A stretch of DNA of 51,563 nt from Oligoflexales bacterium (GTDB lineage: Bacteria > Bdellovibrionota_B > Oligoflexia > Oligoflexales > RGVZ01), in NCBI GenBank assembly GCA_947476525.1, contig CANJQY010000003.1, forward strand, positions 1 to 51,563. The letters are read 5' to 3'. The position numbers and the translations under genes are program-made. Shown piece by piece: positions 1 to 49,672 of this stretch (position 1 is its first letter; the number at the start of each line of letters is the position of its first letter). The notes under the pieces are model-generated. The model saw only the letters and a program-made list of their open reading frames with translations, had not been told where the DNA came from and searched no databases.

Positions 1-521
1 GCCATCAGCGGGAACAATCGCCACGAGTACGACGATTCTTGGTGTTGCAGGAAGTGCTGTTTTGACGCCCGCCGATTGTAATACAGCCGGTCAACAGAAT
101 TGTGTTGCGAAAACCACATACTTTGCAGGTACCGCGTGCGCAGCGAACGGCTCGGCCTGTTACCTGCCAACCTATGTCCAAAGCTCCCAAGACAAAAAAG
201 CGATCGACTTCTCGACGATTGACGCCACAAAAATGCTAACCACCTCTACCGTGTCGGGAGTGGTCGGAACGATTATAAACCAAGGCTCCTTGGCCCTCGC
301 GGCCACATTCCCAGGTGCAGGATACTATTCTGGCATAAGTGCCGCGCCATCAGCGGCAACAATCGCCACGAGTACGACGATTCTTGGTGTTGCAGGAAGT
401 GCAGCTTTGGCGCCCGCCAATTGTTCTACAGCCGGTGGCCAGAACTGTGTAGCGACTGGCAGTTACTATGCAGGAACCCTGTGCGCAGCAAACGGCTGGG
501 CTTGTTACCTGCCAACCTACG
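1..521 (+). repeat. Internal coding repeat, 345-nt (115-aa) period, Cys-containing
   Basis: 1-~176 aligns with 346-~521 (gccatcagcgg.aacaatcgccacgagtacgacgattcttggtgttgcaggaagtgc...tgttacctgccaaccta). Confidence 0.9.
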
Positions 522-1814
522 CTGCTACCACTCAGCCTTTCAAGGCTATTGATTACGATAATATTTCAGCCAATGCAGCTAAAATGCAGACTACACTTTC
601 TGTCGCTGGTGTGACAGGCACGATTGACCTCACAAACCTCACAGCCGGCAACATTAAATCAGGAGTCACCATCGCCGGGATTGCCGGCGACTACCCCTCT
701 GCGACCTATGCGCTTTCAAGTGCTCAGGCCGGCACAGCAGATCTTGAGAATGCGAATTTTGATGCCCAAGTGAAATCAGCCACTGCCTTTGAATATTGGA
801 ACTCTGCAGGCACTCGCCAAACAGGTGCCGGTGATGCAGATATCACGGCGGGAAATATCGCAAACGGCGTTTCAGTCTTTGGACTTTCAGGCACCCTCAC
901 AGGAGGCACAGCTCCTAATGCGTGGGATGTTCGCGTAGGTACTGTGGTCAACGGCGTCACGGGCAAACTTAAGGTCAACTGCCGTAACCGTGTTCGTTCT
1001 GCCGTGTACAATTCCGACGCAGCGGTTGGGTCACTGATCAATACAGGCATCACATCAGGCACGGCTATCGACTATTGGGACACCATTGACGACTATAATG
1101 TTGCCGTCTCAGGGCTTCCAACAGATGTCGTGACGGGATATGCCGGATGGACTACTAACAACGATTGTGGAGGCGTGGAAGCCTCAACCGATGATGTCAA
1201 CGTTTGGAAAGATGTCACCACAACTGGTGACGGTACGACTGCGTCAACTTGTGCTGGAACGGCTGCCCACTGCACCATGAAAGATAAAATCACAACCCTC
1301 CAGTGGAGTAAAATGGCCAACTTTAGCTTTACTAATTCGACTACGACGAACCTCAGCGCCACTCTTGTGGTTTCCTCTACGACCGGCTTAGTCGCAGGAA
1401 TGGTTGTCGCGGGAACTGGTATCCCCGCAAGCACTTATATTCTAAGTGTCGTCAATGGAACTAATCTAACCATGTCAGGGAATGCGACGGCCACAGCATC
1501 GACTGTGACGGTCACCGTAAACACCTCCCTCTGGAACGGAGCTGTGGCCTATTGCGATGGACTCAATCATAACGGTGCCACCGACTGGCGTATTCCTACT
1601 CAAAAGGAATTGCTGGAATCCTACGCCCACGGAGTGAGGTCTGCGGCCTCAGCCAATTGGATCACCGAGGCTCAGATTGACGCCGATTATTTCTGGTCCG
1701 GGTCCTCGGTTTCCTACAATACTAATTTACGCCTGGTACGTCAGCCGTGCTAAAGGCAGCACGAGCAACGGCAACAGCAAGACCAATCCTAACCAGGTCG
1801 TGTGTGTTCGCTAG
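2..1814 (+). pseudogene. DUF1566 (Lcl C-terminal / CLec fold) surface or fibre protein, probable DGR target; 5' end outside window; +1 frameshift at ~1727
   Basis: Frame is open from base 2. C-terminal motifs KDKITTLQWSK...WNGAVAYCDGL..G.TDWRIPTQKEL...YFWSGS are typical of DUF1566. Removing one T from TTT at 1726-1728 restores NYAWYVSRAKGSTSNGNSKTNPNQVVCVR*, the typical CLec ending, with stop at 1812-1814. Confidence 0.85.
1691..1814 (+). other. Candidate DGR variable repeat (VR)
   Basis: The last ~120 nt of the DUF1566 gene are rich in NNC/NNT codons (agc acg agc aac ggc aac agc aag acc aat cct aac), as expected from mutagenised AAC/AAT template codons. An RT remnant lies immediately downstream. 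No template repeat seen. Confidence 0.7.
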
Positions 1815-1878
1815 TGTTCCCCGGCATCCTGTTGTTTTTGCATTCTTTTTTAACGTTATTTGCTAATTCATCAAAAGT

Positions 1879-2480
1879 TTATATTTCTGTAAAATGGTGG
1901 CCATCATAATCCCAAAGTTCCTCAGAATCTGCAGATAATCCGGTAGTTGCTGTGGAAAATAAATCTGAAATGGTAGTGTTCAAAACGTGGTTTCTAAGTT
2001 TTGTAGTTGAGGTGTTTTTCAGCGAGCCATAGTCACCACGGACTACGCAGGTATTTGAGATGTCATATTGAGAAACCGTTTTGCAAAGTTGCTGCCGAAG
2101 GCGAAACGAGTCGGCATGTCCAAAATGCCCTAAGTAGCTGTTGATGCGAGGGATTAAGTCATTGAGATCGTCGTCTGGACCGAGTGCAGACAAATTGACC
2201 ACATGCGCAGCAGCTTTAATAACGCGTTTACGTGGGTACGTCCGGTTAGGCAGATGAAAGCCCCGAGATGATCCAGGCCCCGAGCAAGAGACGTTAGCAA
2301 AAAATTGAGTACGTAGATTTCCAATCGGTAGTCCTTTGCCCGCAACGACTTTGAACAGGCTTTTGTGAGGGGGGAACCTGAGCTAAAAACTTGGGCGATG
2401 ATGCCAATCGATGCTGATTTGGAGCGACGGGGTTGTGACGAATCGTGGTCCGGACCAAATCTCGAATCCGGCAACTAAAA
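1879..2480 (-). pseudogene. DGR-type reverse transcriptase remnant (frameshifted, internally deleted, 5'-truncated)
   Basis: Stitching minus-strand frames gives IRDLVRTTIRHNP...LAQVP/PHKSLFKVVAGKGLPIGNLRTQFFANV // LARGLDHLGAFI/PNRTYPRKRVIK...IPRINSYLGHFGHADSFRLRQQL. These match RT domain 4 (GLPIGNLTSQ..AN), domain 7 (GIDFLG) and the DGR C-terminal NSYLGH motif. The YxDD region is missing at the ~2290 junction. Confidence 0.88.
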
Positions 2481-2531
2481 TCGTCAACCAAGAATAATCG
2501 CGAAGAGAGTATAATGTGTGTTGCTACTACA
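2479..2531. repeat. 53-bp junction element, copy 1 (ends in TGTGTGTTGCTACTACA)
   Basis: 46/53 identical to 8849-8901 by manual alignment. Confidence 0.85.
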
Positions 2532-2556
2532 CATTCGCTTTGAGGCGCAAAAAGGG

Positions 2557-2610
2557 TGTCGTGCCGCAATAATCAATGTTGATGAATTCATTGATTATTT
2601 CGGTACTACA
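2557..2610. repeat. TGT...ACA-bounded imperfect palindrome (MITE-like hairpin A)
   Basis: Arms TGTCGTGCCGCAATAATCAATG / CATTGATTATTTCGGTACTACA, 19/22 complementary. A second, degraded copy starts at 9882. Confidence 0.8.
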
Positions 2611-2791
2611 GCTCGCAAAAATTCTTCGGTTGTTTCGCCTTTGCGAAGTGAAAGTGACAGCGAGGCAAGACACTTGCTTAGAAGTTCAATAAGAATGACT
2701 TTCTTACTAGTATATTTGTGAATACTTTCACAGAATATCATGGTAAAATGTGAATTTAACCTCGTTTTAGAATGGTAAATAGGGTGGAGTT

Positions 2792-4114
2792 GTGGCATTT
2801 GATCGAATTAAGTACCTAAATATCATAAAGTTATGGTATGAAAAAGAAAAACCAAAACCGTTGCTACTTTGGGGGGCGCGACAGGTTGGGAAAACCCACC
2901 TGATGAGACGTGCTGCAGAGATGCATTTTCCCAATAATTTATACCTAAATTTTGAAAAGGAAAAAGGCTTAGCGGAACTCTTTCGAGAGTCTCTCGCTCC
3001 TGAAAAAATTATATATAATCTTTCGCTTCATCTTGAACGAAAAATTGACCCAACGTTAACCGTTTTAATCTTTGATGAGATTCAAGAATGCGATGATGCA
3101 CTGAACAGTTTAAAATATTTTGCCGAATCGACTCATCCATATAAGGTGATCGCAGCTGGATCTCTCCTGGGTGTAAAAAGGAGCAAAAAAGGCTTCCCCG
3201 TTGGGCAGGTGCAGTTTCTTGATATCCATCCTCTCAGTTTTGTCGAATTTCTAGAGTTTAAAGGTCACGCAAAACTGAGCAAGGAACTGGCTCGCGCAAC
3301 ATCTCCTCAGGATTTTCCACAAGCCTTTCACGCATCCCTGCTGCAACATCAAAGAGAGTATTGTTGGACAGGAGGCATGCCCGAAGTTGTAACGACTTTT
3401 GTTAATAATCCTTCAAACCCAAAAGGCGTACGGGAAGTTCAAAATCAAATATTACAATCCTATCAACTGGATTTCGCAAAACATGCACCTTCTGATCTTG
3501 TTAGTAAAATTAGCGCAGTTTTTGACCAAATCCCGCAACTTCTTGCAAAGGAAAATAAGAAGTTTACCTACTCTGGTATCGGAGCAAATGCCAGATCTCG
3601 CGATTTTTCCGACGCTCTGACTTGGCTGATTGACGCTCGCATAGTTCAAAAGGTTAAAAATATTTCTCGAATTGAACTTCCTTTAGCAGCTCACGCGTCG
3701 GCCAATATCTTTAAAATTTATCCATTAGACGTTGGACTTCTCGGAGCGTTACTGGAGGTGCCAGCAAAAACTATTTTGGAATTAGAAGGTGTGTTTAACA
3801 ATTTTAAAGGTGCCTTGGCAGAATGTTTTGTTGCACAGGAACTTTTAGCACATGAATTCGAAAAACTTTATTACTGGACCAGCCAGGGAACTGCAGAAAT
3901 TGATTTTGTCATTCAAAGAGAAACCCAAGTGCTTCCTCTTGAAGTTAAATCTGGGGTAAATGTGAAATCAAAAAGCCTTAAGTCCTTTGGTGACCAATAT
4001 CCCCTATGTAAACTTTCTCGCTGCTCAACAAAAAAATTTGAAGTGCAGGGCAAGGTTACAAACTACCCACTTTACGCCATATCGTTGTTTGCCAGAAATG
4101 TGAGCGACGTCTAA
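2792..4114 (+). CDS. AAA+ ATPase, AAA_14 + DUF4143 (COG1373) family
   Basis: Walker A GARQVGKT, Walker B LIFDEIQ, TGGMPE, FKIYPLDVGLL and C-terminal EIDFVI...PLEVKSG nuclease-like motif. Confidence 0.92.
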   Translation: MAFDRIKYLNIIKLWYEKEKPKPLLLWGARQVGKTHLMRRAAEMHFPNNLYLNFEKEKGLAELFRESLAPEKIIYNLSLHLERKIDPTLTVLIFDEIQECDDALNSLKYFAESTHPYKVIAAGSLLGVKRSKKGFPVGQVQFLDIHPLSFVEFLEFKGHAKLSKELARATSPQDFPQAFHASLLQHQREYCWTGGMPEVVTTFVNNPSNPKGVREVQNQILQSYQLDFAKHAPSDLVSKISAVFDQIPQLLAKENKKFTYSGIGANARSRDFSDALTWLIDARIVQKVKNISRIELPLAAHASANIFKIYPLDVGLLGALLEVPAKTILELEGVFNNFKGALAECFVAQELLAHEFEKLYYWTSQGTAEIDFVIQRETQVLPLEVKSGVNVKSKSLKSFGDQYPLCKLSRCSTKKFEVQGKVTNYPLYAISLFARNVSDV

Positions 4115-4204
4115 AACATCAGAAATTTTGCCTGCAAGTGATAGCAGCCGGCTGAAAACTACAGTATTTGACCTACAGGGGATAAATCCATGGATTATGC
4201 CCTT

Positions 4205-4366
4205 GCACAGCTTATTTCTTTAACGTCGTCATGAAAGACCCAACCGGATCAGTGGACATGGTGGTTTACAACGGCGTCACGGCGACGCCTTAAGACGGCG
4301 GAAGATTGAAAGGTGGCGATATCGATTTATTGATCGTTGTTGAAGATGAGCCATTTGCACGCAAGT
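4205..4366 (+). repeat. Direct repeat copy 1 (copy of the DUF285 gene 3' end plus nucleotidyltransferase fragment start)
   Basis: Aligns with 8507-8674 with ~6 substitutions and one 6-bp indel. Confidence 0.93.
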
Positions 4367-4470
4367 ATGCATTCTCTAGGGGTGAATAGCTGGCAATAAA
4401 TCCGCAATCTTCCAAATCCTGCAAAACGGCAGATATCGAGTTGCTATAGCCATCTTTGATACTCCTTGAC
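4367..4470 (-). pseudogene. Short internal fragment of a probable archaeal-ATPase (COG1672-like) gene
   Basis: SISAVLQDLEDCGFIASYSP resembles the winged-helix segment L..LE.CGFI..Y.P of these ATPases. Very short match. Confidence 0.4.
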
Positions 4471-4478
4471 ACTAGCTG

Positions 4479-4570
4479 TTTGGCCAATTATAGCATTTTT
4501 GTATGTAATTGGCCAAAATATAGAAAGATTTTTTGGCCAATTATGACATTTTTGTATCTAATTGGCCAAA
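4479..4570. repeat. Two tandem 39-bp palindromic units with four TTGGCCAA cores
   Basis: 4479-4517 and 4532-4570, each TTTGGCCAATTA-N15-TAATTGGCCAAA; 53-bp period. Confidence 0.9.
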
Positions 4571-4777
4571 GTTCCCGATGCCGGTCAAGAGTTTGGAAAA
4601 CATTCCCGCGTTTACGAACTTTTCGTCATCAGAATAAGTTAATGGACGACGTTTGTAATGGACGACGTTAGTCACCAAATAAGCAGCTAAAATCCCTATA
4701 GCAAAATAAAATTTATCGTTATTTAGCCATCAAATTCAGCTAGTTGCCACCCCCCCCCAGTTCTTGAGTTGGTGAGC

Positions 4778-4804
4778 TAAAGTTTTGATGGGTTTTGCCG
4801 ATAA
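4778..4804 (+). promoter_or_regulatory. Sigma-28 (FliA) promoter
   Basis: TAAAGTTT-N11-GCCGATAA, an exact match to the FliA consensus, ~70 nt upstream of the ATG at 4876. Confidence 0.85.
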
Positions 4805-4875
4805 GAAATTTGTAAGTAGAAGGATTCGTTTTTATTGGTATTTTGTGACGATTTTTAAGAAAAGTGGGGGGCTGG

Positions 4876-7800
4876 ATGAATTTTCAAAATATTTTAATTT
4901 ATTTAGCCTTGAGCACCCTTACGGCAGGCTGTAAGAGTGAAATTAAAGTGGCCTCCTTAGTCCGCGGATCAAGTAGCACCGACGTCCCAACGATTGTCAT
5001 TGGCGAGCCCTCAGCACTCATCGCGATCGCTACAGACTTGATCACGTTTGACGTCGTTTATACCAATGCTGTGAGCATGGACCTTACCGCAGCAGACGTC
5101 GTCATTTCGGGAGGCCCTAAGGCCACCGCAACGATTGTTTCCAGCACAACGGAAAAAGCAACGGTGCAGCTGACTAATTTTACGGGTGATGGACCTCTTC
5201 AGATTTCCATTGCGGAAAAAACATCCGTCGGTCATAGAAAAAAAGAAGATAAGGGCGCAGGCCCGAGCACTGTCGTTACCGTTGATAATACGAAGCCACT
5301 TGTACCCAACCTGACGCCGGCAAGTACCACTTACACGGGCTCTCAGGTGATGACGTTTGCACAAAACGCCACTGCAGATGTTAACTTTAAAGAATTTAGA
5401 TATACGACCACGGGCACAGCCCCGACCTCGTGTAGTGACGGCACGGCAAGCACAGGCACTTATACGGCCACCGGTACGGTGACCCAGACGATCAAGGTGG
5501 TTGCGTGTGATAAGGCTGGACTCATGTCGGAGACCGCGGCGTCCTCCACTTTAACGTATGCGACAGCAGGTCCGACAGTCACAGCTGTGACCTCAACAAA
5601 AACGAACGGTTCTTATAAAGTGGGCGAAGTGATTGGGATTACGGTTACGTTTTCTGAATCTGTAACCGTTACAGGTACGCCGCAATTGACTCTTGAAACC
5701 GGTACTACTGATGCGGTCGTCAATTATACAAGTGGATCTCCTGGCCTAACCTTAACCTTTAACTACACGGTTGCGTCCGGAGATACGTCCGCAGATCTAG
5801 ACTACGCTTCGACGACAGCCCTCGCCCTCAACGGAGGCACGATTAAAGATACAGCCCTCAACAACGCCACTCTCACCCTCGTCGCCCCAAGCACGACGAC
5901 CGGTGCTACGATCGCCAACGGCAAGGCCATCGTGATTGACACCACTCTGCCAGTCATCGCCTACACGTCGATATCTCCGACCTCTCCAGGAACCAGTGCA
6001 ACACCATCCATTACAATGTCTCTTTCGGAAGCTTCTTCAGCCTCATCTCTGGAATTATTTAGCAACGTTGGATGTACCACATCAATCTCTACTGCGGTGC
6101 CCGGAACCTCAGGCAGCAACGCGGTGACGACCTCCACGTTGACAGCCAATGCGACTACGACTATTTACGCAAAAATGACAGACGTCGCAGGAAACGCATC
6201 AACCTGTACGAGCATGGTCTCTTATCTTTACGACACTCCTCCTACAGCTGGAACGTTTTCGGCTTCTACCGGTAAAACTGTGACCGGCTTCACACTCAAT
6301 TGGTCCGTGGCCAGTGACGTCGTCACAACGGCTGCAAGCTTACAATATTTGGTGTGTTCTGGGGCATCAACCGCTGCCCTTGACACGGTGGCAGAATGTG
6401 ACGGGGCGACACAAGAAATGGCTTACACGGCCAACGTATTGACACTAGCTATCACGGGGAAAACGGCCTCTACCACCTATTACTATAACGTTATCGTTAA
6501 AGATGCGGCGGGCAACAAATCACTCTACGACGGCCTCACTCAAGCCACCAGCACCACTCCGACCATTAGCATCACGGATCCGGACGGCACCGGTGACTCG
6601 GTCTCGGAATCGACCTACCCTGTTGCTATCACGGCAGCTGCCCCCGACACGGTTGGGACGATCAATCTGTATTACCACACAGTCAACACCAGCTGCACCG
6701 CAGGACTTTCTGGGTGGACCTCGATCGTGAGCTCACTTGCCGAAAATACCACGTCCTATGCGTGGAATACCACAGCCCTAGCTAGCGGCAAATATTACGT
6801 CTGTGGAGTCATCACGGACGGTTCCTCCACCGTGTACTCGGTGTCCTCAGGGATGTTGACCGTCAAAGCGTTTATTAGCACCTGGGATACGACAAAAACG
6901 GGTTCAGCTAACACGACTATTGTCTTGCCACTCAGCAGCACCGGTACCTACAACTTCACAGTTGACTGGGGTGACGGATCATCCAACACCATCACCGCGT
7001 GGAATGACGCCAACAAAACCCACGTCTACGCGGCGGGTGGAACCAAGACCCTTACCATCACCGGAACTTTGACCGGATGGGTTTTTAACAACACTGGCGA
7101 CAAGAGAAAGATTACGAATATATCCCAATGGGGATCCTTTAGATTCGGCACCATGGAGGGCGGCTATTTTTACGGCGCAAACAATTTGACCATCACCGCC
7201 ACAGATATCCCGGACCTCACTGGCACAACAAGCATGAACCAAGCATTTAGAAACTGTGGGTCGCTGACAACTGTTCCCAGCATGAATAGCTGGAACACCG
7301 CAGCAGTCACCAACATGTCGTTCATGTTCAGCTATGCCAGCACCTTCAACCAAAATATCGGCAGCTGGAACACCGCTGCGGTCACCGACATGTCGAGCAT
7401 GTTCTTAGGCGCCAGCACCTTCAACCAAAATATTGGCGGCTGGAACACCGCAGCGGTAACGGCTATGTCGAGCATGTTCAACAGCGCCAGCACCTTCAAC
7501 CAAAATATCAGCGGCTGGGTCACCACAGCGGTTACTACTATGGCGAACATGTTCCTGAGCGCCACCGTCTTCAACCAAGATATCGGCAGCTGGAACACCG
7601 CTGCTGTCACCAACATGTCGTCCATGTTATACGGCGCCACCGTCTTCAACCAAGATATCAGCAGCTGGAACACCGCAGCGGTCACCAACATGTCGTTCAT
7701 GTTCTACGGCGCCAGCACCTTCAACCTAAATATCGGCAGCTGGAACACCGCAGCGGTCACCAACATGTCGTCCATGTTCTCTGGGGCCTCCGCCTTTAAT

Positions 7801-8601
7801 CAGAACATTGGCAGCTGGAATACGGCAGCAGTCACGAATATGTTCGAAGTGTTCTACTATGCCACCGCCTTCAACCAAAATATCAGCAGCTGGAGCACCG
7901 CAGCGGTCACGACTATGTATGGCATGTTCTACGGCGCCACCGCCTTCAACCAAGATATTAGCGGCTGGAACACCGCAGCAGTCACGAGTATGCGGAGCAT
8001 GTTCTACGGCGCCACCGCCTTCAACCAAGATATTAGCGGCTGGAACACCGTAGCAGTCACGGAAATGACGAGCATGTTCACCCTTGCCACTGCCTTTTCT
8101 ACCCTCAATTATGATTCATTTTTGATTGCTCTCACGAAGTTCCCAGTCAAAGCAGCGGCAATTTGGCTAGGTGCGGCTGCAAAGTACTCTAACGGTACAG
8201 CTGCCACTGCGAGAGCTGCGCTTGTAGCACAATCCCCAGCTTGGACAATCACTGACGGTGGAGTTAACACAACCTGGCCTACCTCAGGGGCTTTTGCGGC
8301 GACGACGAATCTTGCGGCGACGACACTTACACTTAATTGGACCAAGGGGTCGGATACAGGTACGGCTCAGAATTTACTTGAATACTATGTTTGCACAGCA
8401 GCTACAGCGAACTCCATCGATACCGTTGGAGAGTGTTTAGCCGCCGCAGGAGGTAGCGGCTGGACCGCGGATATCGCAACAATGAATGTGACGACGTTGA
8501 CTGCTAGCACAACTTATTTCTTTAACGTCGTTATGAGAGACCCAACCGGATCAGTGGACATGGTGATATACAACGGCGTCACGGCGACGACTACGCCTTA
8601 A
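4876..8601 (+). CDS. Large surface lipoprotein: Thr-rich Ig-like domains, two FN3-like domains, PKD-like segment and DUF285 (BspA-type) repeats
   Basis: Lipobox LTAG-C. VDWGDG motif. Eleven 25-aa repeats WNTAAVTNMSSMF.GA..FNQ.I.S. Two homologous TLNW...YxxNV..xD FN3-like units. Confidence 0.9.
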   Translation: MNFQNILIYLALSTLTAGCKSEIKVASLVRGSSSTDVPTIVIGEPSALIAIATDLITFDVVYTNAVSMDLTAADVVISGGPKATATIVSSTTEKATVQLTNFTGDGPLQISIAEKTSVGHRKKEDKGAGPSTVVTVDNTKPLVPNLTPASTTYTGSQVMTFAQNATADVNFKEFRYTTTGTAPTSCSDGTASTGTYTATGTVTQTIKVVACDKAGLMSETAASSTLTYATAGPTVTAVTSTKTNGSYKVGEVIGITVTFSESVTVTGTPQLTLETGTTDAVVNYTSGSPGLTLTFNYTVASGDTSADLDYASTTALALNGGTIKDTALNNATLTLVAPSTTTGATIANGKAIVIDTTLPVIAYTSISPTSPGTSATPSITMSLSEASSASSLELFSNVGCTTSISTAVPGTSGSNAVTTSTLTANATTTIYAKMTDVAGNASTCTSMVSYLYDTPPTAGTFSASTGKTVTGFTLNWSVASDVVTTAASLQYLVCSGASTAALDTVAECDGATQEMAYTANVLTLAITGKTASTTYYYNVIVKDAAGNKSLYDGLTQATSTTPTISITDPDGTGDSVSESTYPVAITAAAPDTVGTINLYYHTVNTSCTAGLSGWTSIVSSLAENTTSYAWNTTALASGKYYVCGVITDGSSTVYSVSSGMLTVKAFISTWDTTKTGSANTTIVLPLSSTGTYNFTVDWGDGSSNTITAWNDANKTHVYAAGGTKTLTITGTLTGWVFNNTGDKRKITNISQWGSFRFGTMEGGYFYGANNLTITATDIPDLTGTTSMNQAFRNCGSLTTVPSMNSWNTAAVTNMSFMFSYASTFNQNIGSWNTAAVTDMSSMFLGASTFNQNIGGWNTAAVTAMSSMFNSASTFNQNISGWVTTAVTTMANMFLSATVFNQDIGSWNTAAVTNMSSMLYGATVFNQDISSWNTAAVTNMSFMFYGASTFNLNIGSWNTAAVTNMSSMFSGASAFNQNIGSWNTAAVTNMFEVFYYATAFNQNISSWSTAAVTTMYGMFYGATAFNQDISGWNTAAVTSMRSMFYGATAFNQDISGWNTVAVTEMTSMFTLATAFSTLNYDSFLIALTKFPVKAAAIWLGAAAKYSNGTAATARAALVAQSPAWTITDGGVNTTWPTSGAFAATTNLAATTLTLNWTKGSDTGTAQNLLEYYVCTAATANSIDTVGECLAAAGGSGWTADIATMNVTTLTASTTYFFNVVMRDPTGSVDMVIYNGVTATTTP
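7291..8100 (+). repeat. 75-nt coding tandem repeat, 11 units (DUF285)
   Basis: tggaacaccgc-type starts every 75 nt from 7291 to 8041. Confidence 0.95.
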
Positions 8602-8674
8602 GACGGCGGAAGATTGAAAGGTGGCGATATCGATTTATTGATCGTTGTTGAAGATGAGCCATTTGCACTCAAGT
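8507..8674 (+). repeat. Direct repeat copy 2
   Basis: Aligns with 4205-4366. Confidence 0.93.
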
Positions 8675-8829
8675 TGAGCGGTCGACGTTTCGAAATAATT
8701 GCTGATTTTAAGAAAAATATCGGCGACCGCCGCATTGACCTCTCAATTTTATCCAAAGGTGCCATAAGCACTGAGCCATTTTGGATTGCGACCTTTCCTC
8801 CCGCGCGCCAGCTTCATCAGTGGAGTTGA
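8602..8829 (+). pseudogene. N-terminally truncated minimal nucleotidyltransferase (MNT antitoxin-like)
   Basis: KGGDIDLLIV...IGDRRIDL is present, but the upstream FGSR motif is replaced by the end of the DUF285 gene. Confidence 0.75.
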
Positions 8830-8848
8830 CGGGCATTTTTTCGACAAT

Positions 8849-8901
8849 AATCGTCAACCAAAAGAAATTGCGAAAAGCGTACAATGTGTGTTGCTACTAC
8901 A
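8849..8901. repeat. 53-bp junction element, copy 2
   Basis: 46/53 identical to 2479-2531. Confidence 0.85.
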
Positions 8902-8960
8902 ACCTGAAAATCTCAAATTTAAAAATTAGATTTACATAGAAAATCCAGAGAAATTGAACC

Positions 8961-9007
8961 TGTGCTACCGCTTTATTAAGATGGCAGGTTAATAAAGCGG
9001 TAGTACA
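8961..9007. repeat. TGT...ACA-bounded palindrome (hairpin B)
   Basis: TGTGCTACCGCTTTATTAA-N9-TTAATAAAGCGGTAGTACA, 18/19 complementary. Confidence 0.85.
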
Positions 9008-9028
9008 CGCCTATCTCAGCTGCCGGGC

Positions 9029-9068
9029 TTGCATTTATAAGAATGGTAGTGTATAATTTGTTATAACA
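9029..9068 (+). promoter_or_regulatory. Sigma-70 promoter and palindromic operator of the mazEF-like operon
   Basis: TTGCAT-N17-TATAAT (9029-9057), palindrome TGTTATAACA (9059-9068), then GGAGG RBS. Confidence 0.8.
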
Positions 9069-9077
9069 GGAGGTCCT

Positions 9078-9323
9078 ATGATTTCGCAAAGAATTAAGAT
9101 CCGAAAAATGGGCAACAGTCACGGAATTTTAATACCTCAAGAAATTCTTAAAAGCATGCAATGGGAAGCTGGTCAATTTGTTGATCTAATCTTGGAGTTA
9201 AATGCATTGGTACTTGCCACGCCAGTGCCGACTTTAAATGATTTAGTAAATAGCGTTCCCAAGAAAATGAAAATCAAAGAAGTTTCCACTGGGAGGCCTG
9301 TTGGAAAGGAGAAGGTTGACTGA
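9078..9323 (+). CDS. mazE: AbrB/MazE family antitoxin
   Basis: KIRKMGNSHGILIP...TLNDLV...TGRPVGKE; overlaps the toxin start (TGATG). Confidence 0.9.
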   Translation: MISQRIKIRKMGNSHGILIPQEILKSMQWEAGQFVDLILELNALVLATPVPTLNDLVNSVPKKMKIKEVSTGRPVGKEKVD

Positions 9324-9646
9324 TGTATATACCTGAACGTGGTGACATCTGCTGGTTAACATTTGATCCTCAAGCCGGGCACGAACAAATGAAGCGCCGC
9401 CCTGCTCTGATTATTTCTGAAAAAATATTTAACGCAATTGGTTTAGCAGTTGTGTGCCCAATTACTTCTGCGTCTCCTAAGCATGGCTTTCATATTAAGC
9501 TACCAGAGACGCTTCGAACTGGTGGATGCGTCATGACAGAGCAAATTAAAAGTTTGGATTTTATTTCACGTAAGGCAGAATTCATTGAATATGCTCCGTT
9601 TGGATTTATTCAACACGTTAGATCAATTGTTGCCCAATTCATTTGA
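9323..9646 (+). CDS. mazF: MazF/PemK family endoribonuclease toxin
   Basis: YIPERGDICWLTFDPQAGHEQMKRRPALIIS...VCPITS...EQIKSLD. Confidence 0.95.
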   Translation: MYIPERGDICWLTFDPQAGHEQMKRRPALIISEKIFNAIGLAVVCPITSASPKHGFHIKLPETLRTGGCVMTEQIKSLDFISRKAEFIEYAPFGFIQHVRSIVAQFI

Positions 9647-9881
9647 GATTCTCTTAGCTTTTGAAATCTGATATCTTGTTAAAGGCATCAGGTTTTGGTC
9701 ACGAGCTTTGTTGCCCTGCGTCAATTCAGGACTTCTTATAGGTAGATTTTGCTGAAAAAGGTCCGAAATAAAGTCGCCCCCTCTTGGGTTCTAGCCCATT
9801 TTTTTGCCACTAATCATTGGTCTCACTCAATCGATCCTAAACCTTCCTACATCAATCTAATCCACTAGGTCTGCTGCCATC

Positions 9882-9925
9882 TGTAGTGCCGCAATAATCA
9901 ATGTCTATGAATTCATTGATGATTT
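9882..9925. repeat. Degraded copy of hairpin A
   Basis: 40/44 identical to 2557-2600; begins TGTAGTGCCG. Confidence 0.8.
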
Positions 9926-10072
9926 TATGTAGCTCTGATATGAGCCGCTTTATGCTTGAGCACCTCAAAAAACTTCAATTGCTTCTGAAATTCGTTTGGC
10001 GAGTTTTAGGTCAACTTTTATCAGACCTATGGGCGTACTATTCGTCTCCACCACGGCTCCACATGTCGTGTT

Positions 10073-10450
10073 TTACCACAATGCTTTGTTGTAATTTGCA
10101 CGAATGTGCTGATCTCGCGTGATCAAATATCCATTTTCTATACGGGCATGGCACGTAATGAGCCGATCAAATGGGTCCCTGGTCCAAGATTCACTCAGTG
10201 AATGCTCAATGAGAACATTGAGGGGAATATTGTGAATCTGCAAACCTATTTGATCGTAAAGCTGTGACGTCACTTTGTCGGCCTTCTCTTTAATTCGCTC
10301 TATCTCATACAGGTACTGCAGTTCCAATTTCACAAGAGGTGAAATAAAGAGATCATTGTCCTCAAGTCGAGACTTCACGGCATCGCTGAATTTGTCTAGC
10401 TCACCTTGGTATAACCAAATACAGGCATTTGTGTCTAAAAAATGAATCAT
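10073..10450 (-). CDS. PIN-domain (VapC-like) toxin
   Basis: FLDTNACIW...ISP...E...RDPFDRLI...LITRD; ATGA overlap with the antitoxin. Confidence 0.92.
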   Translation of the reverse strand: MIHFLDTNACIWLYQGELDKFSDAVKSRLEDNDLFISPLVKLELQYLYEIERIKEKADKVTSQLYDQIGLQIHNIPLNVLIEHSLSESWTRDPFDRLITCHARIENGYLITRDQHIRANYNKALW

Positions 10451-10674
10451 CGCAGCTTCCATTCTTGCGTCCAATCGATATGCTCAAAATTGTCTGAGTC
10501 TTCGCTTGTGAGCTTTCGTGGCTTGAGTTTGCTAAGTTTAGAATATCGCTTACTTACAGAAATAATTTTCAACAAATTGCCATTTCGCTCAATTTCAGCA
10601 GGCTTTCCGGTCCTTATGATTTCATCTAAAATTTTGTAGACTTCTTGACGTAATTTTGAGGCCGTAAGGCGCAT
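10447..10674 (-). CDS. Phd/YefM family antitoxin
   Basis: LTASKLRQEVYKILDEIIRTGKPAEIERNG, directly upstream of the PIN toxin. Confidence 0.88.
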   Translation of the reverse strand: MRLTASKLRQEVYKILDEIIRTGKPAEIERNGNLLKIISVSKRYSKLSKLKPRKLTSEDSDNFEHIDWTQEWKLR

Positions 10675-10695
10675 GAGTATATCTCCTAGGCTGTA

Positions 10696-10741
10696 TACGT
10701 ACGTACATGATAAGCATACGTACGTACGTTTGAAATGTCAA
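10696..10741 (-). promoter_or_regulatory. Sigma-70 promoter with two palindromic operators
   Basis: Minus strand TTGACA-N17-TATGCT (10741-10713). TACGTACGTA palindromes at 10696-10705 and 10717-10726. Confidence 0.8.
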
Positions 10742-10796
10742 CCATACACGCACCCAATCGGTAGATATTGTGTGTTGATGCTACAGCGAGCTTCAG

Positions 10797-10825
10797 TTGA
10801 CGCTGATATTCAATAGCGGTACAAT
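10797..10825 (+). promoter_or_regulatory. Sigma-70 promoter
   Basis: TTGACG-N17-TACAAT; GAGGAGG RBS at 10857-10863. Confidence 0.75.
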
Positions 10826-10868
10826 ACTGCATTGACTCAACTTCTAATCGCAAATTGAGGAGGTGGCT

Positions 10869-12884
10869 ATGCGCTTCGCAAGAATTATATGCATGCTGGT
10901 TTTCATGTCGTTATTGACCCACTGTGCAACTAAACGGTCACCGTCTGCAAGTAAGGCGCAAGCAGCCTCCAACTCGCCGTATCAAGGTCTAGACAATCAA
11001 GATCTCACAAGGCTCATTGTAAAAGCCAACGGTGACTGGAATAATGCTGAGACGAAGATGGCTTGGCTAACGCTGGCGAGCAATTTCCTCGGACACGTGG
11101 ACTCGGTGCGTCGAGCCATTGTCGCAATGCCGCCAAGGCGTCCGGCAGCGGGACTTAACCTGGCCGCAGAAACGCCTGCGATTGATGCTCTCGCAGAGCA
11201 AAAACTTCAAATGCAATGGGCAGAACAATCGGCTCGAAGCGGGCTAGATCAAAGCCGATTAATGCTCGATTACGACCGAGCGAGCGGTGATTATGATATT
11301 CGGCGCCAAGAATTGCTTAAAGGCTATGACAAGCAAACATTTGACAATGCCATCTCCGCAGCCAAAACTAACGTGGAAATACAAGGCAATCAAATAGAAA
11401 ACTTTCAGAAGCTGATTGAGGCCAAGAAAAAAATTATTGAGAATCAAATTCTTGGAAATTACGCAAATGCATTTAATTCTTATGTCCGCTCTTATCATGA
11501 GTACACGTTAACTATAGCCACCGTAATGCGGGGTGCCAAAAAGGTATCACAAAAAGCAAGCGTCCTTGCCAATTCTATAATGGAGTATGACAAGAGAGTG
11601 AGGCATTGTGCGTCAGCTCAAACAGCACAGACAAATCAAAATATGCGGACTGCAATTAGAAATCTCGCATTGGCTGACTACTCCAAATTGCTCATTCAAG
11701 CTGAGAGCTCTGTGGCGCCCCGTGTCCAGGCAGTAACAGATCTGCCTCACGGCAGCGAGTGCCTAGAGCTGGGGCTGATCCAGGCCAATATGGATGAATT
11801 TCCGTCAAGCTTTGCGTCGGATGCTTATCCAGTGGCGAGTCCGATCTTCAGACTGATTGTAGATTCCAATCCACGGGGGTCGGTGGCCGCCAGGACAATT
11901 GCTGCCTGCCCTGCATTGGAGTCAGGCGGTGATCCCCTTGGTCTACGCCCGCATGCTGCTCAAATGATGGGAATATCTGGCAATATTCAGACAGCCGCCG
12001 ATTCTCTTGAGGTGGTCAACGGCTACTTTTCAAATTCAATTTCAAGTGCCTCAGAGATTGTGCCCAACTCAAATGTACCGGATGAGACGGCTCCTACATT
12101 GGGTCAGCAAATTGAGGTAGGGTCAGCAGTAGATTTAGGGATGGCTTATTTGACGGATGTACCAAGGGCAGATAATCGTGAATTGATCATTCCTTTTCCA
12201 GCGACGCCATTTCAGGTAACCATGCAAGTTGCAAAAGGCCAGATTGAATTTCGTAGCGCAGGTGCGACTGCACCAGAGAAGCCGTATTGCAGTGTTCGAC
12301 CGAGCGATTCAATAGGAAAACAAAATTTAAAAATTTTTGTTGACTCAGTTCGAAAATATGAAGCTCAGCGAGCGATCAAACTCCGCCGGGATCTTGAGGT
12401 CGCAGGCGTGCGTTTTGATAATGCAGGTAAAATTCAATTAGACAGCACGCCCTACAACGGTGGATCACTGGCAACGACTGACACGACAAGAGTCAACGCT
12501 TTGGTACGCCGTGGTTTGTTCTTGGCTCAGCAATGCACACGAATGACTGTCGAACACGTCGAGCAAGCAGAAGTCAGTGCCGGCCAAACAAGTGTGACGT
12601 TACCACAGGCAACGGATGTATCTGTCGGCTTGAATAAATATACGTTCTTTTACCCACCATATTCGTTGGGCGACGATCAGACGACCCTTGGCAGTGCTAT
12701 GGTAAAGGCGACTAGAACTTGCATGGACAATGCGTTAATGTCTTTGTCTCAAAGCCAGCAAGCATTGTCGGCGGCGTCTGAATTTTATAAATTTTTCGGG
12801 GAGGCTGCCAATATTCACGCCCCCGCAGCGCCGATCCCTTATGTTCCCAATCCCCCGCCGGGCTCGATTGTTTATGGACGCTGA
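10869..12884 (+). CDS. Hypothetical lipoprotein with coiled-coil N-terminal region
   Basis: Long ORF with strong RBS and lipobox-like LLTH-C; no family recognised. Confidence 0.75.
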   Translation: MRFARIICMLVFMSLLTHCATKRSPSASKAQAASNSPYQGLDNQDLTRLIVKANGDWNNAETKMAWLTLASNFLGHVDSVRRAIVAMPPRRPAAGLNLAAETPAIDALAEQKLQMQWAEQSARSGLDQSRLMLDYDRASGDYDIRRQELLKGYDKQTFDNAISAAKTNVEIQGNQIENFQKLIEAKKKIIENQILGNYANAFNSYVRSYHEYTLTIATVMRGAKKVSQKASVLANSIMEYDKRVRHCASAQTAQTNQNMRTAIRNLALADYSKLLIQAESSVAPRVQAVTDLPHGSECLELGLIQANMDEFPSSFASDAYPVASPIFRLIVDSNPRGSVAARTIAACPALESGGDPLGLRPHAAQMMGISGNIQTAADSLEVVNGYFSNSISSASEIVPNSNVPDETAPTLGQQIEVGSAVDLGMAYLTDVPRADNRELIIPFPATPFQVTMQVAKGQIEFRSAGATAPEKPYCSVRPSDSIGKQNLKIFVDSVRKYEAQRAIKLRRDLEVAGVRFDNAGKIQLDSTPYNGGSLATTDTTRVNALVRRGLFLAQQCTRMTVEHVEQAEVSAGQTSVTLPQATDVSVGLNKYTFFYPPYSLGDDQTTLGSAMVKATRTCMDNALMSLSQSQQALSAASEFYKFFGEAANIHAPAAPIPYVPNPPPGSIVYGR

Positions 12885-13036
12885 TCGACTGGACTGGATC
12901 ACTATGCCAAAATCCTGAAAAATGGCCTGTTTTAGGCTGTTTTAGAGCGACATTTGGATTGAGGTCCTGCATAGCCCACATATCAGCTCGGTAAGATGGA
13001 CCGATGAGGACCGGTAACACAATGCGGCATCAAGAC

Positions 13037-13651
13037 TTAGTTTAGATAAGCGCTAGTTGACACCAAAGGCATGATGGCATTTGATGCGGTACGCACAAGT
13101 CCCATTCTAGTTGTGACGGTCGTCCACATTTCCGCCCACGGCGTATTAAACACGAGGACTCGGTCCATTGGTTGCAGGGCCCAGGCTCCAGACCTAATTT
13201 CATCGTCTAATTGACCTTTACTCCAGCCTGCATAGCCCACAAGAAATCGGTATGGGTTTAAGCTGTTGTGGGACGGTGCTGCTCCAGCTGCAATTTCATC
13301 AAGCGAGGCGGCACTTTCGTCTAATAGGGAATCTAACACGCGACCTGAAGTGCTTAGGTAAACTCCCTGGCCCACGTCAGTGTCGTTGGTCGCCGGTTTA
13401 CGGGAGTGGAGTATAATAGCGGTGCCTGTATCAACGGGGCCGCCATACCAAGCAGGAATGGCTGATGGTACGTCTCGGTCAATGAGGCTTAGCATAGACT
13501 TGAGGGGGACGGTGCTTGGGCGATTTAAAATAAAACCGATGGCTCCCTCGCTGTTGTGCTCAGCAAGAAGGAGGACTGTTTTAATAAAGTTGCCGTCAAG
13601 CATGCTGGGCATACCGATAAGCAAACATGGAGCGGAAATATGCGTAATCAT
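13037..13651 (-). CDS. yqgE: YqgE/AlgH family protein
   Basis: LLIGMPSMLDGNF..TV..L.EH..EGAIGFILNRP, GGPV, GYAGWSKGQLDDEI..GAW. Confidence 0.95.
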   Translation of the reverse strand: MITHISAPCLLIGMPSMLDGNFIKTVLLLAEHNSEGAIGFILNRPSTVPLKSMLSLIDRDVPSAIPAWYGGPVDTGTAIILHSRKPATNDTDVGQGVYLSTSGRVLDSLLDESAASLDEIAAGAAPSHNSLNPYRFLVGYAGWSKGQLDDEIRSGAWALQPMDRVLVFNTPWAEMWTTVTTRMGLVRTASNAIMPLVSTSAYLN

Positions 13652-14038
13652 CCGTGATCACCATCCGTGTATAAATTGTTTAAATACTAATTTAAAGATT
13701 AATGTCTGCTCTTTATAGAGACTACGAGACTCCAAACTAGTTCGTCAACCACTAAATGACCATTGCGTTTGTTTTTCCAGGAAGTTTCGGAATGTGGCAG
13801 AGTGGGGCAGTGTTTTATACCTAAACTTATTTACTAGATTGGCAACAAACCATATTTTTGCAAGTAATTCTCTTGATTATGGCATGAATCCTTTGGCGGG
13901 CAAGCGCTAGCGCAGGTATTAGGTTTAGTTATAATACACTTTTGCAGGCGCAAATTTTAGGGCAATTGTTAATTTTCGTACTATAATAGGTAAATAGCTG
14001 CACACCGTAGGTAACTCGTCACTTAGAATGCAGCCGTG

Positions 14039-14094
14039 AGTCATCAGTCATCAGTCATCAGTCATCAGTCATCAGTCATCAGTCATCAGTCATC
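14039..14094 (+). repeat. Heptanucleotide VNTR (AGTCATC)x8
   Basis: Eight perfect copies, ~40 nt upstream of the ATG at 14136. Confidence 0.97.
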
Positions 14095-14135
14095 AGCAGC
14101 AAGGCCCTTTTGTTAACGTCATAGCCTTAGGATGA

Positions 14136-17784: not shown

Positions 17785-17849
17785 TCTATAACACAGATGC
17801 GTGACAAGACATTCGGGAAATTGGTCGGCCATCATTGGCCGCACTATGC

Positions 17850-21451: not shown

Positions 21452-23006
21452 GGGGACCTGCAACCGGCGCGGTGGTGGGGCGTTGCACGCCGTACCTAAT
21501 TTCCTTTGAAAATAAGACGGCGACCTCAGCCGATTCATAGCGAATGAGCACCGACTCTGCTCGGTCCACCTGCCAAAGTCCTGCGGCGGCACCTTTTCGT
21601 TTTTTTATTTGATGGCGCCTTGCGACGTAGACTTCCCCTTCACGGGAGTTTGAGCGGTCTGAAAAATGCAGGGCCAAGACGCCCGCTGCGCGTAGAAGGG
21701 CTGCTGGCAGACCGTCTTTAAACCCATTGCCTGCAACGATGACGTGACTACCGTGCCCACCCCCGGCGACGTGAAGCCACCAGTCTTGAGACTTTGAGGC
21801 CTTAACTACTTTGTCACTTTCCTCTGCATTTCGTCCGACCACGATATAGGATCCGGCTGAAACTTGAAAACAGCGGCCGACCGCGGCCTTAAGATGCTTT
21901 ACCGCGTGCGGTGTAGTGTTTTTCGCGGTTTTTTTCGCGGTTTTTTTCGCGGTTTCTTTCGCGGTTTCTTCGGCGGGCTTTCTCTCAAGGCGAAGCTCGC
22001 GAAGAATATTTAAGACGTCTAATTCTGATAATTTGGTAACAGAATTCCGCAATTGTTCAAGGACCGCCTCAAAGTGCCCAATGTCAGAGGTTAAGGCATC
22101 TACTCGCGGCCTTCCAACACTTATACTGCGTTCTAGTTTTTTAATTTTTACGAAGGCCGCCTCTAAATTGGCACCCGCCGAGAGTTCAGAGTCAAGCTTG
22201 ATCGTTCTCGGTTCTTCCCCTGTTTGCGTGCTGTCAAGGTCGAGAGCGAAGGCTTCAGGTTTAACCAGCCAAATGAAATTTCGCAGTAATTCGGCGTCTT
22301 TTTTGGCGTTGAGTAACATGGCCGCAGCCGGAATCTTTCCCAGGTCTTGAGCCAAGGTCTTCCTTAGTGTTTTAAGTCGCCTTGAAACTCGGTCGCGAGC
22401 TGCCCTTTGGTATGGTGGAATAGGGGAGTTTTGGTTGTCGCAGGGGGAGGTGCCTAGTGTGGGTTCCTTGGATTTTTTCTGGTCCATTGAAAACGTGTGA
22501 TGAGCCCACGCATTAAAACCGGTGACTTCCAAATCCTCTGCCTCGACATGCTCCAAAATGGCTTTTTTTGGTACCGTGTATCGCGCCTTTTCCCGAAAGC
22601 GGGCGATGCTAGTCTTGTCAACAATAACAGTAATTTCTCGGTCTGGCTTGGTTGAGAGTACGAGGTAGATGGCCGAATCTTGACCAGACGAAGTTTTTCC
22701 GTGGCAGGACAGGCGAAGAAATTCATGCTTCGCCCCGTGGCTACTTTGCTGATTAGAGCTTATTGGTTCACTCAAGGCGATGCTGGTTAGGGAACCGGCG
22801 GTCAGGTGCTTTCGAATGAGGGTGGCTATTCCACCAGCAGTTAGCGTTAGCGCAGGTTTTTCGTCTGTAAAAACCACTGGTCCCTCGGGATTTGTGGGTG
22901 ACAGTTCAAGGAAACCCTTGCGACGCGTAAGGCCGTCGTGGGTGGAGCATTGGAAGATTAGGGATCCATGGTCAGACTGCCAGCATTTACCGAGGGTGAT
23001 TTTCAT
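21444..23006 (-). CDS. NFACT/RqcH (FbpA, DUF814) family protein
   Basis: I.LD.ELSAGANLE..F.K.KK; C-terminal NFACT-R with VGRNAEESD...DWWLHV....GSHVIV...AA.LA..FS. Confidence 0.85.
   Translation of the reverse strand: MKITLGKCWQSDHGSLIFQCSTHDGLTRRKGFLELSPTNPEGPVVFTDEKPALTLTAGGIATLIRKHLTAGSLTSIALSEPISSNQQSSHGAKHEFLRLSCHGKTSSGQDSAIYLVLSTKPDREITVIVDKTSIARFREKARYTVPKKAILEHVEAEDLEVTGFNAWAHHTFSMDQKKSKEPTLGTSPCDNQNSPIPPYQRAARDRVSRRLKTLRKTLAQDLGKIPAAAMLLNAKKDAELLRNFIWLVKPEAFALDLDSTQTGEEPRTIKLDSELSAGANLEAAFVKIKKLERSISVGRPRVDALTSDIGHFEAVLEQLRNSVTKLSELDVLNILRELRLERKPAEETAKETAKKTAKKTAKNTTPHAVKHLKAAVGRCFQVSAGSYIVVGRNAEESDKVVKASKSQDWWLHVAGGGHGSHVIVAGNGFKDGLPAALLRAAGVLALHFSDRSNSREGEVYVARRHQIKKRKGAAAGLWQVDRAESVLIRYESAEVAVLFSKEIRYGVQRPTTAPVAGPHE
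21921..21968 (-). repeat. 12-nt coding tandem repeat x4 (K[K/E]TA)
   Basis: TTTCGCGGTTT[T/C] x4 on the plus strand. Confidence 0.9.
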
Positions 23007-39871: not shown

Positions 39872-39942
39872 ACAGATTCCACTGAATATGGTCGAAATCA
39901 AGGCGCCAGAATGGTAAATTGGCGTCGACTGGGATTCCTAAC

Positions 39943-40011
39943 TTGAAAATTACCGACCGAGGGCTAGTTGACGGTTCCAAATTTGAGATAGTCACGGTAG
40001 AATTGGTGTAA
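39943..40011 (+). repeat. ade 3'-end direct repeat, copy 2
   Basis: 67/69 identical to 37247-37315, ending exactly at the TAA. Confidence 0.95.
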
Positions 40012-49157: not shown

Positions 49158-49664
49158 TTATTCGTGGGGACTATCGTACCAGCCATCTTCTTTTCGGCGA
49201 TCATGAATTAAAGCCCAAGCAGCTCCACAAAAAAGCTTTCCTGCTGCCGTTAAATCTGGATCGTCCATCGTCGCTTCAGCGCGCACAACAATGTTCAGCT
49301 GGTCGCACTCAGAGCTGACTTCCCTTAAGCGAGGTAAGTCAGATTTGGCTTGAGATAACGTGTCGAAAAAAACAACCGCATAGCGGCGATTTTGTGGCTT
49401 TGTCGCCGAAGCAGTTTCAGCGGAGGGCCGCGATACTGTTTTGCGCGGGATTAGCGCACTCTGGAATTGTGCATTTTTATTGGCAGGGCGGTCTACTTGG
49501 GGCTGGCCTTGCTGGTGGGCGCGTTTATCATTGGATGATTGTTGAGCCCCGTGTTGGCGTTTGGGCTGCCGTCCATTTTGACCGGCGCCATTTTGACCGG
49601 CGCCATTTTGACCGGCGCTGCCGCTTTGATTTCTATTTTTTCCGCCTCGTCCACGTCGTGACAT
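49158..49664 (-). CDS. Hypothetical protein with low-complexity R/G/Q/N N-terminus
   Basis: ORF with (GQNGA)n repeats and a globular C-terminus; AAGGA RBS. Confidence 0.7.
   Translation of the reverse strand: MSRRGRGGKNRNQSGSAGQNGAGQNGAGQNGRQPKRQHGAQQSSNDKRAHQQGQPQVDRPANKNAQFQSALIPRKTVSRPSAETASATKPQNRRYAVVFFDTLSQAKSDLPRLREVSSECDQLNIVVRAEATMDDPDLTAAGKLFCGAAWALIHDRRKEDGWYDSPHE
49573..49617 (-). repeat. 15-nt coding repeat x3
   Basis: CCATTTTGACCGGCG x3 on the plus strand. Confidence 0.9.
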
Positions 49665-49672
49665 TATCATTC

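Follow-up and report, generated by a model that had tools for sequence, protein, structure and literature searches.

E53, a recurrent 53-nt element in a toxin-antitoxin and defence island, as a probable terminal repeat of MITE-like elements in the Bdellovibrio lineage

The first 11 kb of a 51,563-nt stretch of chromosomal DNA (contig CANJQY010000003.1 of assembly GCA_947476525.1; the whole stretch is called the window here) form an accessory region in which small toxin-antitoxin (TA) and other accessory modules are split by a recurring 53-nt element, which we name E53. This element is probably the outer terminal inverted repeat of a non-autonomous family in the Bdellovibrio lineage that resembles miniature inverted-repeat transposable elements (MITEs), and the two hairpins and the segment 9882-10050 found in the same region are, by their sequence, derivatives of an IS481-like insertion sequence (IS). 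What has accumulated in this TA/defence island is ordinary mobile-DNA debris and not a new cassette system. A preliminary description of the same DNA had proposed an undescribed cassette or recombination system, which is not supported: E53 has no attC-like fold, neighbouring genes are not co-oriented, and the window has no integrase. Its first option for the mechanism, in which a TGT/ACA DDE transposase of the IS481 type left the ends behind, is right in essence, since the hairpins are shown to be IS481-like ends and E53 behaves as a terminal inverted repeat.

With the junction motifs explained in this way, an annotation can be given to six non-coding features of the window that had none, and transposon ends are seen to mark the joints where TA/defence modules swap between close relatives. 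A literature search, made at listing level, returned no description of such elements in Bdellovibrio, and both the MITE family and the IS481-like IS are apparently undescribed in this genus.

E53 copies in the window

Three copies of E53 lie on the forward strand of the window, and the first adjoins the inner part of a longer end. They are listed below together with this part; L numbers denote loci fetched from the related genome Bdellovibrio sp. ZAP7.

2479-2531, + strand: E53 copy 1; outer tip ...CTACTACA at 2531, inner side to the left; orthologous to L011 2001-2049.
8849-8901, + strand: E53 copy 2; outer tip at 8901.
10737-10785, + strand: E53 copy 3; diverged, keeping GTCAACCA, the 24-nt spacing, and the TGTGTGTTG...CTACA tip.
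2381-2480, + strand: inner part of the long end; 97% identical over 100 nt to L004 1817-1916; its minus strand encodes part of a reverse-transcriptase (RT) remnant.

Copies 1 and 2 are identical at 46 of 53 positions, in agreement with what was first reported, and a longer comparison (2474-2531 with 8844-8901, repeat family D10) gives 84% over 58 nt. The 17-mer core of the element, searched with up to three mismatches, occurs at 2515, 8885, and 10769, always on the forward strand, against 0.05 occurrences expected; none of 100 shuffles reaches three. Because the site at 10769 shares GTCAACCA exactly 24 nt upstream of TGTGTGTTG, we take it as a true third copy of E53, even if the letters of the spacer themselves are not conserved. 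The preliminary description had also listed a weaker core at 10064 and had bracketed the Phd-PIN module with the sites at 10064 and 10769. The second of these is an E53 copy, as indicated above, whereas the first (10064-10080, + strand) is a chance match, with 7 mismatches out of 17 and 268 window 17-mers at least as close; on that side the module is preceded by an IS left end at 9882 instead. With the same 17-mer search, no partner of the same type was found for any of the three window copies.

The 100-nt piece that adjoins copy 1 and its ZAP7 orthologue in L011 also accompanies E53 in L004. Compared with L004, both copy 1 and the L011 copy correspond to the long form of E53 from which 74 nt are missing internally.

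A sharp outer tip and inverted pairs in Bdellovibrio sp. ZAP7

A strict two-box pattern was scanned over 185,579 species-representative genomes and gave 27 loci, 10 of which, representing nine distinct copies on six contigs, belong to a single metagenome-assembled genome, Bdellovibrio sp. ZAP7. The other 17 are single matches in unrelated taxa, with nothing alike beyond the pattern itself; for 17 fixed bases, about 70 chance matches were estimated in a scan of this size. ZAP7 is the only one of these species genomes in which E53 is present in many copies. The arrangement seen in the window is not among the 27 loci, and therefore the genome from which it comes is not one of the species representatives; it is a close relative of ZAP7, since two segments are 94% and 99% identical between them. 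The long form of E53 has no match among 72,556 plasmids.

A relaxed search of the fetched loci increased the collection to 16 distinct tips, three from the window and 13 from ZAP7. When these are aligned at the tip, the 22 columns inside it are conserved in 14-16 of the 16 copies and the 15 columns outside it in 5-9, which shows that the similarity ends exactly after ...CTACTACA. Inward, the similarity extends over about 138 nt in L004, L015b, and L023, and over 92-111 nt in L001, L007, and L020. In addition, E53 occurs in ZAP7 as inverted pairs that enclose no gene:

L020 1993-2206: inverted E53 pair of 214 nt.
L023 1337-1530: inverted E53 pair of 194 nt.
L020 947-1000: inverted E53 mini-form of 54 nt, one side of which retains only 10 tip bases.

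An abrupt outer boundary, conservation that continues further inward, and short inverted pairs devoid of genes correspond in structure to a transposon terminal repeat with MITE-like derivatives. As in MITEs, we find short non-coding elements with inverted ends (54, 194, and 214 nt in ZAP7) and many dispersed copies with a sharp boundary. Genes of the TA, Fic, AlbA_2, or STAND/DUF4143 type are found within 2 kb of E53 in 8/8 ZAP7 regions, a proportion for which there is no background rate for comparison.

Two local peculiarities accompany E53 copies of ZAP7. At L015 3562-3593, on contig 30, incomplete tandem repeats of the tip (a 12-nt GTTGCTACTACA and then an 8-nt piece) come after it, which could be a product of end slippage or of aberrant transposition. 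At L020 1982-2218, the 214-nt pair stands in the middle of a perfect 11/12-nt palindrome (cgaaaatagac / ggtctattttcg) upstream of an antitoxin-PIN operon, and may have inserted into an operator palindrome.

Hairpins and the ends of an IS481-like insertion sequence

The TGT...ACA hairpins that had been noticed after copies 1 and 2 both exist, with fold z-scores against shuffles of -4.74 for hairpin A and -6.49 for hairpin B. A third feature of related sequence precedes the Phd-PIN module.

2557-2610: hairpin A; arms 2557-2578 and 2589-2610 (22 nt, 86%); 54-nt mini-element made of two inverted IRL-type (left-end) tips.
8961-9007: hairpin B; arms 8961-8979 and 8989-9007 (19 nt, 95%); 47-nt mini-element made of two inverted IRR-type (right-end) tips.
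9882-10050, + strand: truncated IS481-like IS, with its left terminal repeat and first transposase codons, between MazEF and Phd-PIN.

Judged from their sequence, hairpins A and B are the ends of an IS481-like insertion sequence with a transposase of the rve (DDE) type. For the left end, the predicted N-terminus of the transposase P0004 reads through the arm of hairpin A (IRL), and in L025 this arm precedes transposase residues 1-120. The region 9882-10050 matches L025 at 86% over 171 nt; residues 13-27 of P0004 align to 9882-9926 and residues 31-68 to 9937-10050 (79% identity, E 1.6e-9). The latter segment encodes a 38-residue fragment of the transposase N-terminus, so that the earlier statement that the window encodes no recombinase is correct for intact genes and not for fragments. 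For the right end, L023 opens at a contig end with the last 70 transposase codons (1-213), the stop codon of which lies inside ...TAATAAAGCGGTAGCACA; this sequence is the hairpin B arm with one mismatch (arm at L023 210-228).

The full-length proteins matched by the transposase fragments of L023 and L025, namely P0004 (351 aa), P0006 (331 aa), and P0009 (312 aa), all carry the rve_3 domain. Their best NCBIfam model is IS481 (NF033577), with 89-112 bits against a cut-off of 224, followed by IS3 with 74-87 bits. The terminal inverted repeats of the IS begin with TGTAGTGCCGC... at the left tip and, when reverse-complemented, with TGTGCTACCGC... at the right tip. The tips of all these elements are alike: TGTAGTAGC in E53, TGTAGTGCC at the IS left end, and TGTACTACC or TGTGCTACC at the IS right end.

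Members of the IS481 family have imperfect terminal inverted repeats starting with TGT and a short direct target duplication. Around hairpin A, an 8-nt direct repeat (CGCAAAAA) is present 3 nt outside each end, thus not abutting the element; for hairpin B, a target duplication abuts none of the three copies, and the sequences compared include no complete IS with both of its flanks. Hairpin B is also found at L016 3500-3546 and thus accompanies the MazEF genes.

The window has six end-type elements, comprising the E53 copies, the hairpins, and the truncated IS; all are located within 2.4-10.8 kb, and none occurs in the other ~41 kb, which is mostly housekeeping.

Synteny breaks at the tips

Comparison of the window with ZAP7 reveals breakpoints at these motifs, as the preliminary description had anticipated for related genomes. 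L016 3441-4040 is 99.2% identical to window 8902-9501 over 600 nt, the match beginning immediately outside the tip of copy 2, and left of 8902 the two sequences are unrelated. L011 matches window 1912-2559 at 93.7%, and this match stops at 2559, with the first TGT of hairpin A. Identity falls to 77% in the neighbouring Lcl_C gene.

The modules are also arranged differently, MazEF standing before the Lcl_C/RT module on ZAP7 contig 30 and after it in the window. The high identity of the MazEF module, including hairpin B (99.2%, compared to 77-94% for the neighbouring shared segments), suggests that this module was recently transferred. Among the cargo genes, those for the ATPases and PIN proteins are not orthologous: the ATPases show only local matches of 26-43% and the PIN proteins are 23% identical.

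Units bounded by an IS left tip and by E53

At three places, the left tip of the IS faces the right end of E53 in the correct inverted orientation:

L015 1982-2049: chimeric unit of 68 nt.
L025 1766-2189: chimeric unit of 424 nt, enclosing transposase residues 1-120.
Window 9882-10785: chimeric unit of 904 nt, enclosing the transposase stub and Phd-PIN.

The segment 2557-8901 of the window is a candidate for a fourth unit, less clear than the others because hairpin A owns a second tip. We tentatively consider that E53 and the IS481-like left end may together define cargo-carrying non-autonomous transposons, such as 9882-10785, which would be moved and re-sorted by one trans-acting DDE transposase. 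In combination with one-ended events at solo E53 copies, this might build an integron-like, one-orientation array of TA/defence modules that needs no site-specific recombinase, with GTCAACCA, the 24-nt spacing, and the tip as the minimal recognition unit. We regard this extension as rather unlikely; if true, it would offer a small testable model of transposase-driven island assembly.

A separate 56-nt repeat (84%), containing a GGCCA...TGGCC palindrome, is found at window 17794-17849, just downstream of a thioredoxin-like gene, and at L025 1674-1729 in ZAP7, 36 nt outside an E53 tip. The match between these two sites had been considered as a flank for an empty-site comparison and was rejected, as it consists of this separate repeat.

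Proposed mechanism and points against it

We propose that a DDE transposase acting in trans, IS481-like or a close relative, would cut at the ...ACA tip and move these elements. All of the ends, in E53, in the hairpins, and in 9882-10050, share a TGTAGT-type tip. Repeated insertion, internal deletion, and end-adjacent rearrangement would then leave solo ends at the joints between TA, ATPase, and adhesin modules, and homologous exchange between direct E53 copies possibly contributes to these solo ends as well. The transposase acting on E53 is one that we infer, since no transposase gene is seen between E53 ends, and the origin given here for the solo ends is likewise a proposal. What the comparisons establish is the repeat family with its sharp tip and its inverted pairs, the match of the hairpins to IS ends, and the synteny breaks at tips.

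Several observations weigh against E53 being the terminal repeat of a MITE-like family. Ten of the 11 elements have no abutting target-site duplication, and in the eleventh, hairpin A, the repeat lies 3 nt away from either end; direct repeats of at least 4 nt that abut the ends are found in 0/3 E53-E53 pairs and in 0/4 units with IRL and E53 ends. Neither the window nor the fetched ZAP7 loci contain a full-length element in which E53 ends enclose a transposase gene, the genome scan having used the motif only. The solo E53 copies all point in the same direction, 3/3 in the window and 5/5 on ZAP7 contig 30, an arrangement not expected from random MITE insertion. On their inner side, six copies end at -44 to -57 nt from the tip, and copy 3 retains just the two boxes at fixed spacing; a discrete site of ~50 nt would explain these two features as well as a decayed end does. 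Moreover, E53 and the IS repeats are alike over about 9 tip bases only, and the relatives of the transposase score far below the NCBIfam cut-off for IS481, as indicated above.

At the L023 locus, the tip of the E53 pair abuts a truncated transposase gene and the other flank does not continue this gene, which indicates an end-adjacent rearrangement rather than a simple insertion. Together with the observations above, this allows for one-ended or recombinational events at E53, which we consider to be secondary and to affect ends that originate from transposons.

Comparison with known mobile systems

Like IS481-family IS and their MITEs, the elements described here involve an rve-type transposase for which IS481 is the best NCBIfam model, TGT...ACA termini, a transposase stop codon within the right repeat, and gene-less derivatives that keep both tips. 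They differ from this family by scores far under its cut-off, by nearest plasmid-borne relatives that are at most 31% identical, by the lack of target duplications, and by E53 sharing only its tip with the IS repeats.

Cargo-carrying non-autonomous IS derivatives are known as mobile insertion cassettes and 'transporter IS'. The segment 9882-10785, in which an IS left end, a transposase stub, Phd-PIN, and an inverted E53 right end follow each other, has a similar layout. Nevertheless, it lacks a target duplication, its two ends are of different sequence types, and its mobility is putative.

Other module systems include the pdif modules of Acinetobacter plasmids, the sites of which alternate in orientation, and integron cassette arrays. 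As in these arrays, a short site recurs between small TA and accessory modules, the order of which differs between relatives. Unlike them, E53 has neither a XerD-type arm nor a folded structure nor an integrase, the solo sites have one orientation, and the orientation of the genes is mixed.

Alternative explanations

E53 could also be the right end of a larger cargo transposon, Tn7-like, Tn5053-like, or similar, which inserted repeatedly and one-way at the same chromosomal site, the older copies having lost their transposition genes and left ends to give an array of right ends with cargo. Such elements are characterized by a multi-gene transposition module, a 5-bp duplication, and several transposase-binding repeats per end. 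This would account for the shared orientation of the solo copies, and it is consistent with the length of the end (up to ~138 nt), with the TGT...ACA termini, and with a cargo of TA and defence-type genes. There is also a mild enrichment of GTTGnC-like repeats in E53, with 26 similar 14-mer pairs compared to 7.6 expected, a number reached by 2 of 200 shuffles. However, the window and nine ZAP7 loci contain no TnsA/B/C, TniQ, or other transposition genes, just fragments of the IS481-like rve transposase, and no 5-bp duplications are seen. The symmetrical pairs of 54-214 nt and the likeness of the tip to that of the IS481-like IS are better suited to an IS/MITE origin, and we consider a larger cargo transposon improbable.

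Still less probable, in our view, is a site for a site-specific recombinase, either attC-like as in integrons or Xer/pdif-like, at which the modules would be exchanged as cassettes. The modules that lie between copies are indeed not the same, and their order changes from the window to ZAP7; the E53 copies are direct repeats, and the element may be viewed as a discrete unit of ~50 nt with two conserved boxes at fixed spacing. E53 is not attC-like because it does not fold on either strand (z of +0.04 to -1.53 for the three window copies and the 146-nt long form), in accordance with the preliminary description. The latter had also suggested an 11-6-11 tyrosine-recombinase site that resembles a XerC box and lacks a XerD box. 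Among the dif sequences of PMC2731167, which include that of B. bacteriovorus HD100 and for which the XerD side is stated to be the better conserved one, the left arm and centre of E53 resemble the XerC side of the Neisseria site (6/11 and 4/6), and the resemblance is confined to this side. The arm on the XerD side matches at only 2/11 positions with the HD100 site and 3/11 with the Neisseria site of the same source, and the last 28 nt of E53 agree with the HD100 site at 8/28, which speaks against the suggested 11-6-11 arrangement.

Other features are equally unfavourable to a recombinase site. No tyrosine or serine recombinase is found in the window, with no Phage_integrase match among the 43 window open reading frames (ORFs) scanned, and the genes just outside the tip are co-oriented in only 7/13 cases. 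The boundary of similarity lies at the tip and not in a central crossover region, and inverted mini-pairs that keep 10 tip bases on one side suit transposon ends, not a core recombination site.

The least credible explanation is that E53 is a copied promoter or operator fragment of TA operons, spread by segmental duplication (copied promoter fragments were also considered in the preliminary description): a TATAAT or TACAAT lies 16 nt from the E53 end, the GTCAAC box of copy 3 is the -35 of a minus-strand Phd-PIN promoter (TTGACA, 17 nt, TATGCT, 10741 to 10713), and the island does contain segmental duplications (families D6 and D7), yet no sigma-70-type promoter (-35/-10 at 16-18 nt) is called in copies 1 and 2 on either strand, the flanking genes face either way, and the ZAP7 copies occur on six contigs with unrelated flanks on both sides, in addition to the inverted pairs, a pattern foreign to segmental duplication.

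The reverse-transcriptase remnant beside copy 1

Copy 1 begins where an RT remnant ends, which itself follows a gene with an Lcl_C domain.

1879-2474, - strand: RT remnant; frameshifted, with the N-terminal ~160 residues and the motif-5 region lost.
2-1753, + strand: Lcl_C-domain gene, the domain being C-terminal.

The remnant itself has no match in a Pfam search. For its ZAP7 counterpart, an ORF of 165 residues (L011 1512-2009, - strand), an exhaustive search (E up to 0.001) recovered 137 relatives, and RVT_1 is present in 12 of the 13 relatives checked, one of which is fused to bAvd and two to MutS_I. Judged by these relatives, the RT remnant is genuine, as had been proposed. Residues 9-67 of the L011 ORF align near positions 165-220 of full-length proteins and residues 78-162 near 269-353, from which it follows that the ORF lacks the region of the catalytic motif 5 as well as some 160 residues at the N-terminus.

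The Lcl_C domain is associated with diversity-generating retroelements (DGRs). Since one of the RT relatives is fused to bAvd and the adjoining gene has an Lcl_C domain, the RT remnant and the Lcl_C gene suggest a decayed DGR; no pair of template and variable repeats was found between the 3' part of the Lcl_C gene and the rest of 1761-12000.

Gene content of the window and other repeats

The G+C content of the window is 47%. From ~13 kb on it carries mostly housekeeping genes, including those for the DNA polymerase III alpha subunit, GMP synthase, IMP dehydrogenase, and prolyl-tRNA synthetase. The accessory genes that precede them encode, in order, the Lcl_C-domain protein, the RT remnant, a DUF4143 ATPase, a DUF285 repeat protein, a nucleotidyltransferase fragment, MazE and MazF, and PIN and Phd. 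The DUF285 repeat protein is an adhesin of 1245 residues. The DUF4143 ATPase matches the PADLOC candidate defence family PDC-S01; it is the sole PADLOC match and uninformative for E53. The truncated nucleotidyltransferase reported before copy 2 is present as a fragment that matches NTP_transf_2 only weakly (E 0.011, over positions 30-75 of the 93 in the profile). An Rfam scan of 1-14000 (E up to 1) gave no known RNA, its two matches being far under the gathering score (23.4 against 90 and 22.2 against 50 bits).

One internal duplication involves these genes:

4202-4366, + strand: duplicate of 8504-8674; families D6 and D7 (97% and 92%).

It covers the last 98 nt of the DUF285 adhesin gene and the start of the nucleotidyltransferase fragment, with 92-97% identity, and is a scar of an earlier rearrangement within the island.

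Slightly downstream of 4202-4366, two 39-nt direct repeats (4479-4517 and 4532-4570, 92%) each form a palindrome, TTGGCCAATT...AATTGGCCAA. Both overlap a minus-strand sigma-70-like site upstream of a 65-residue ORF (4290-4487, - strand) and look like operators of a small autoregulated gene.

In the housekeeping part of the window, the last 93 nt of the adenine deaminase gene (37223-37315) recur with 91% identity at 39919-40011, 2.7 kb downstream and past a CHASE2 cyclase gene. Finally, short tandem arrays with units of 7, 12, 15, and 21 nt are found at 14031-14103, 21904-21984, 49573-49618, and 49667-49749, partly in or beside coding regions.

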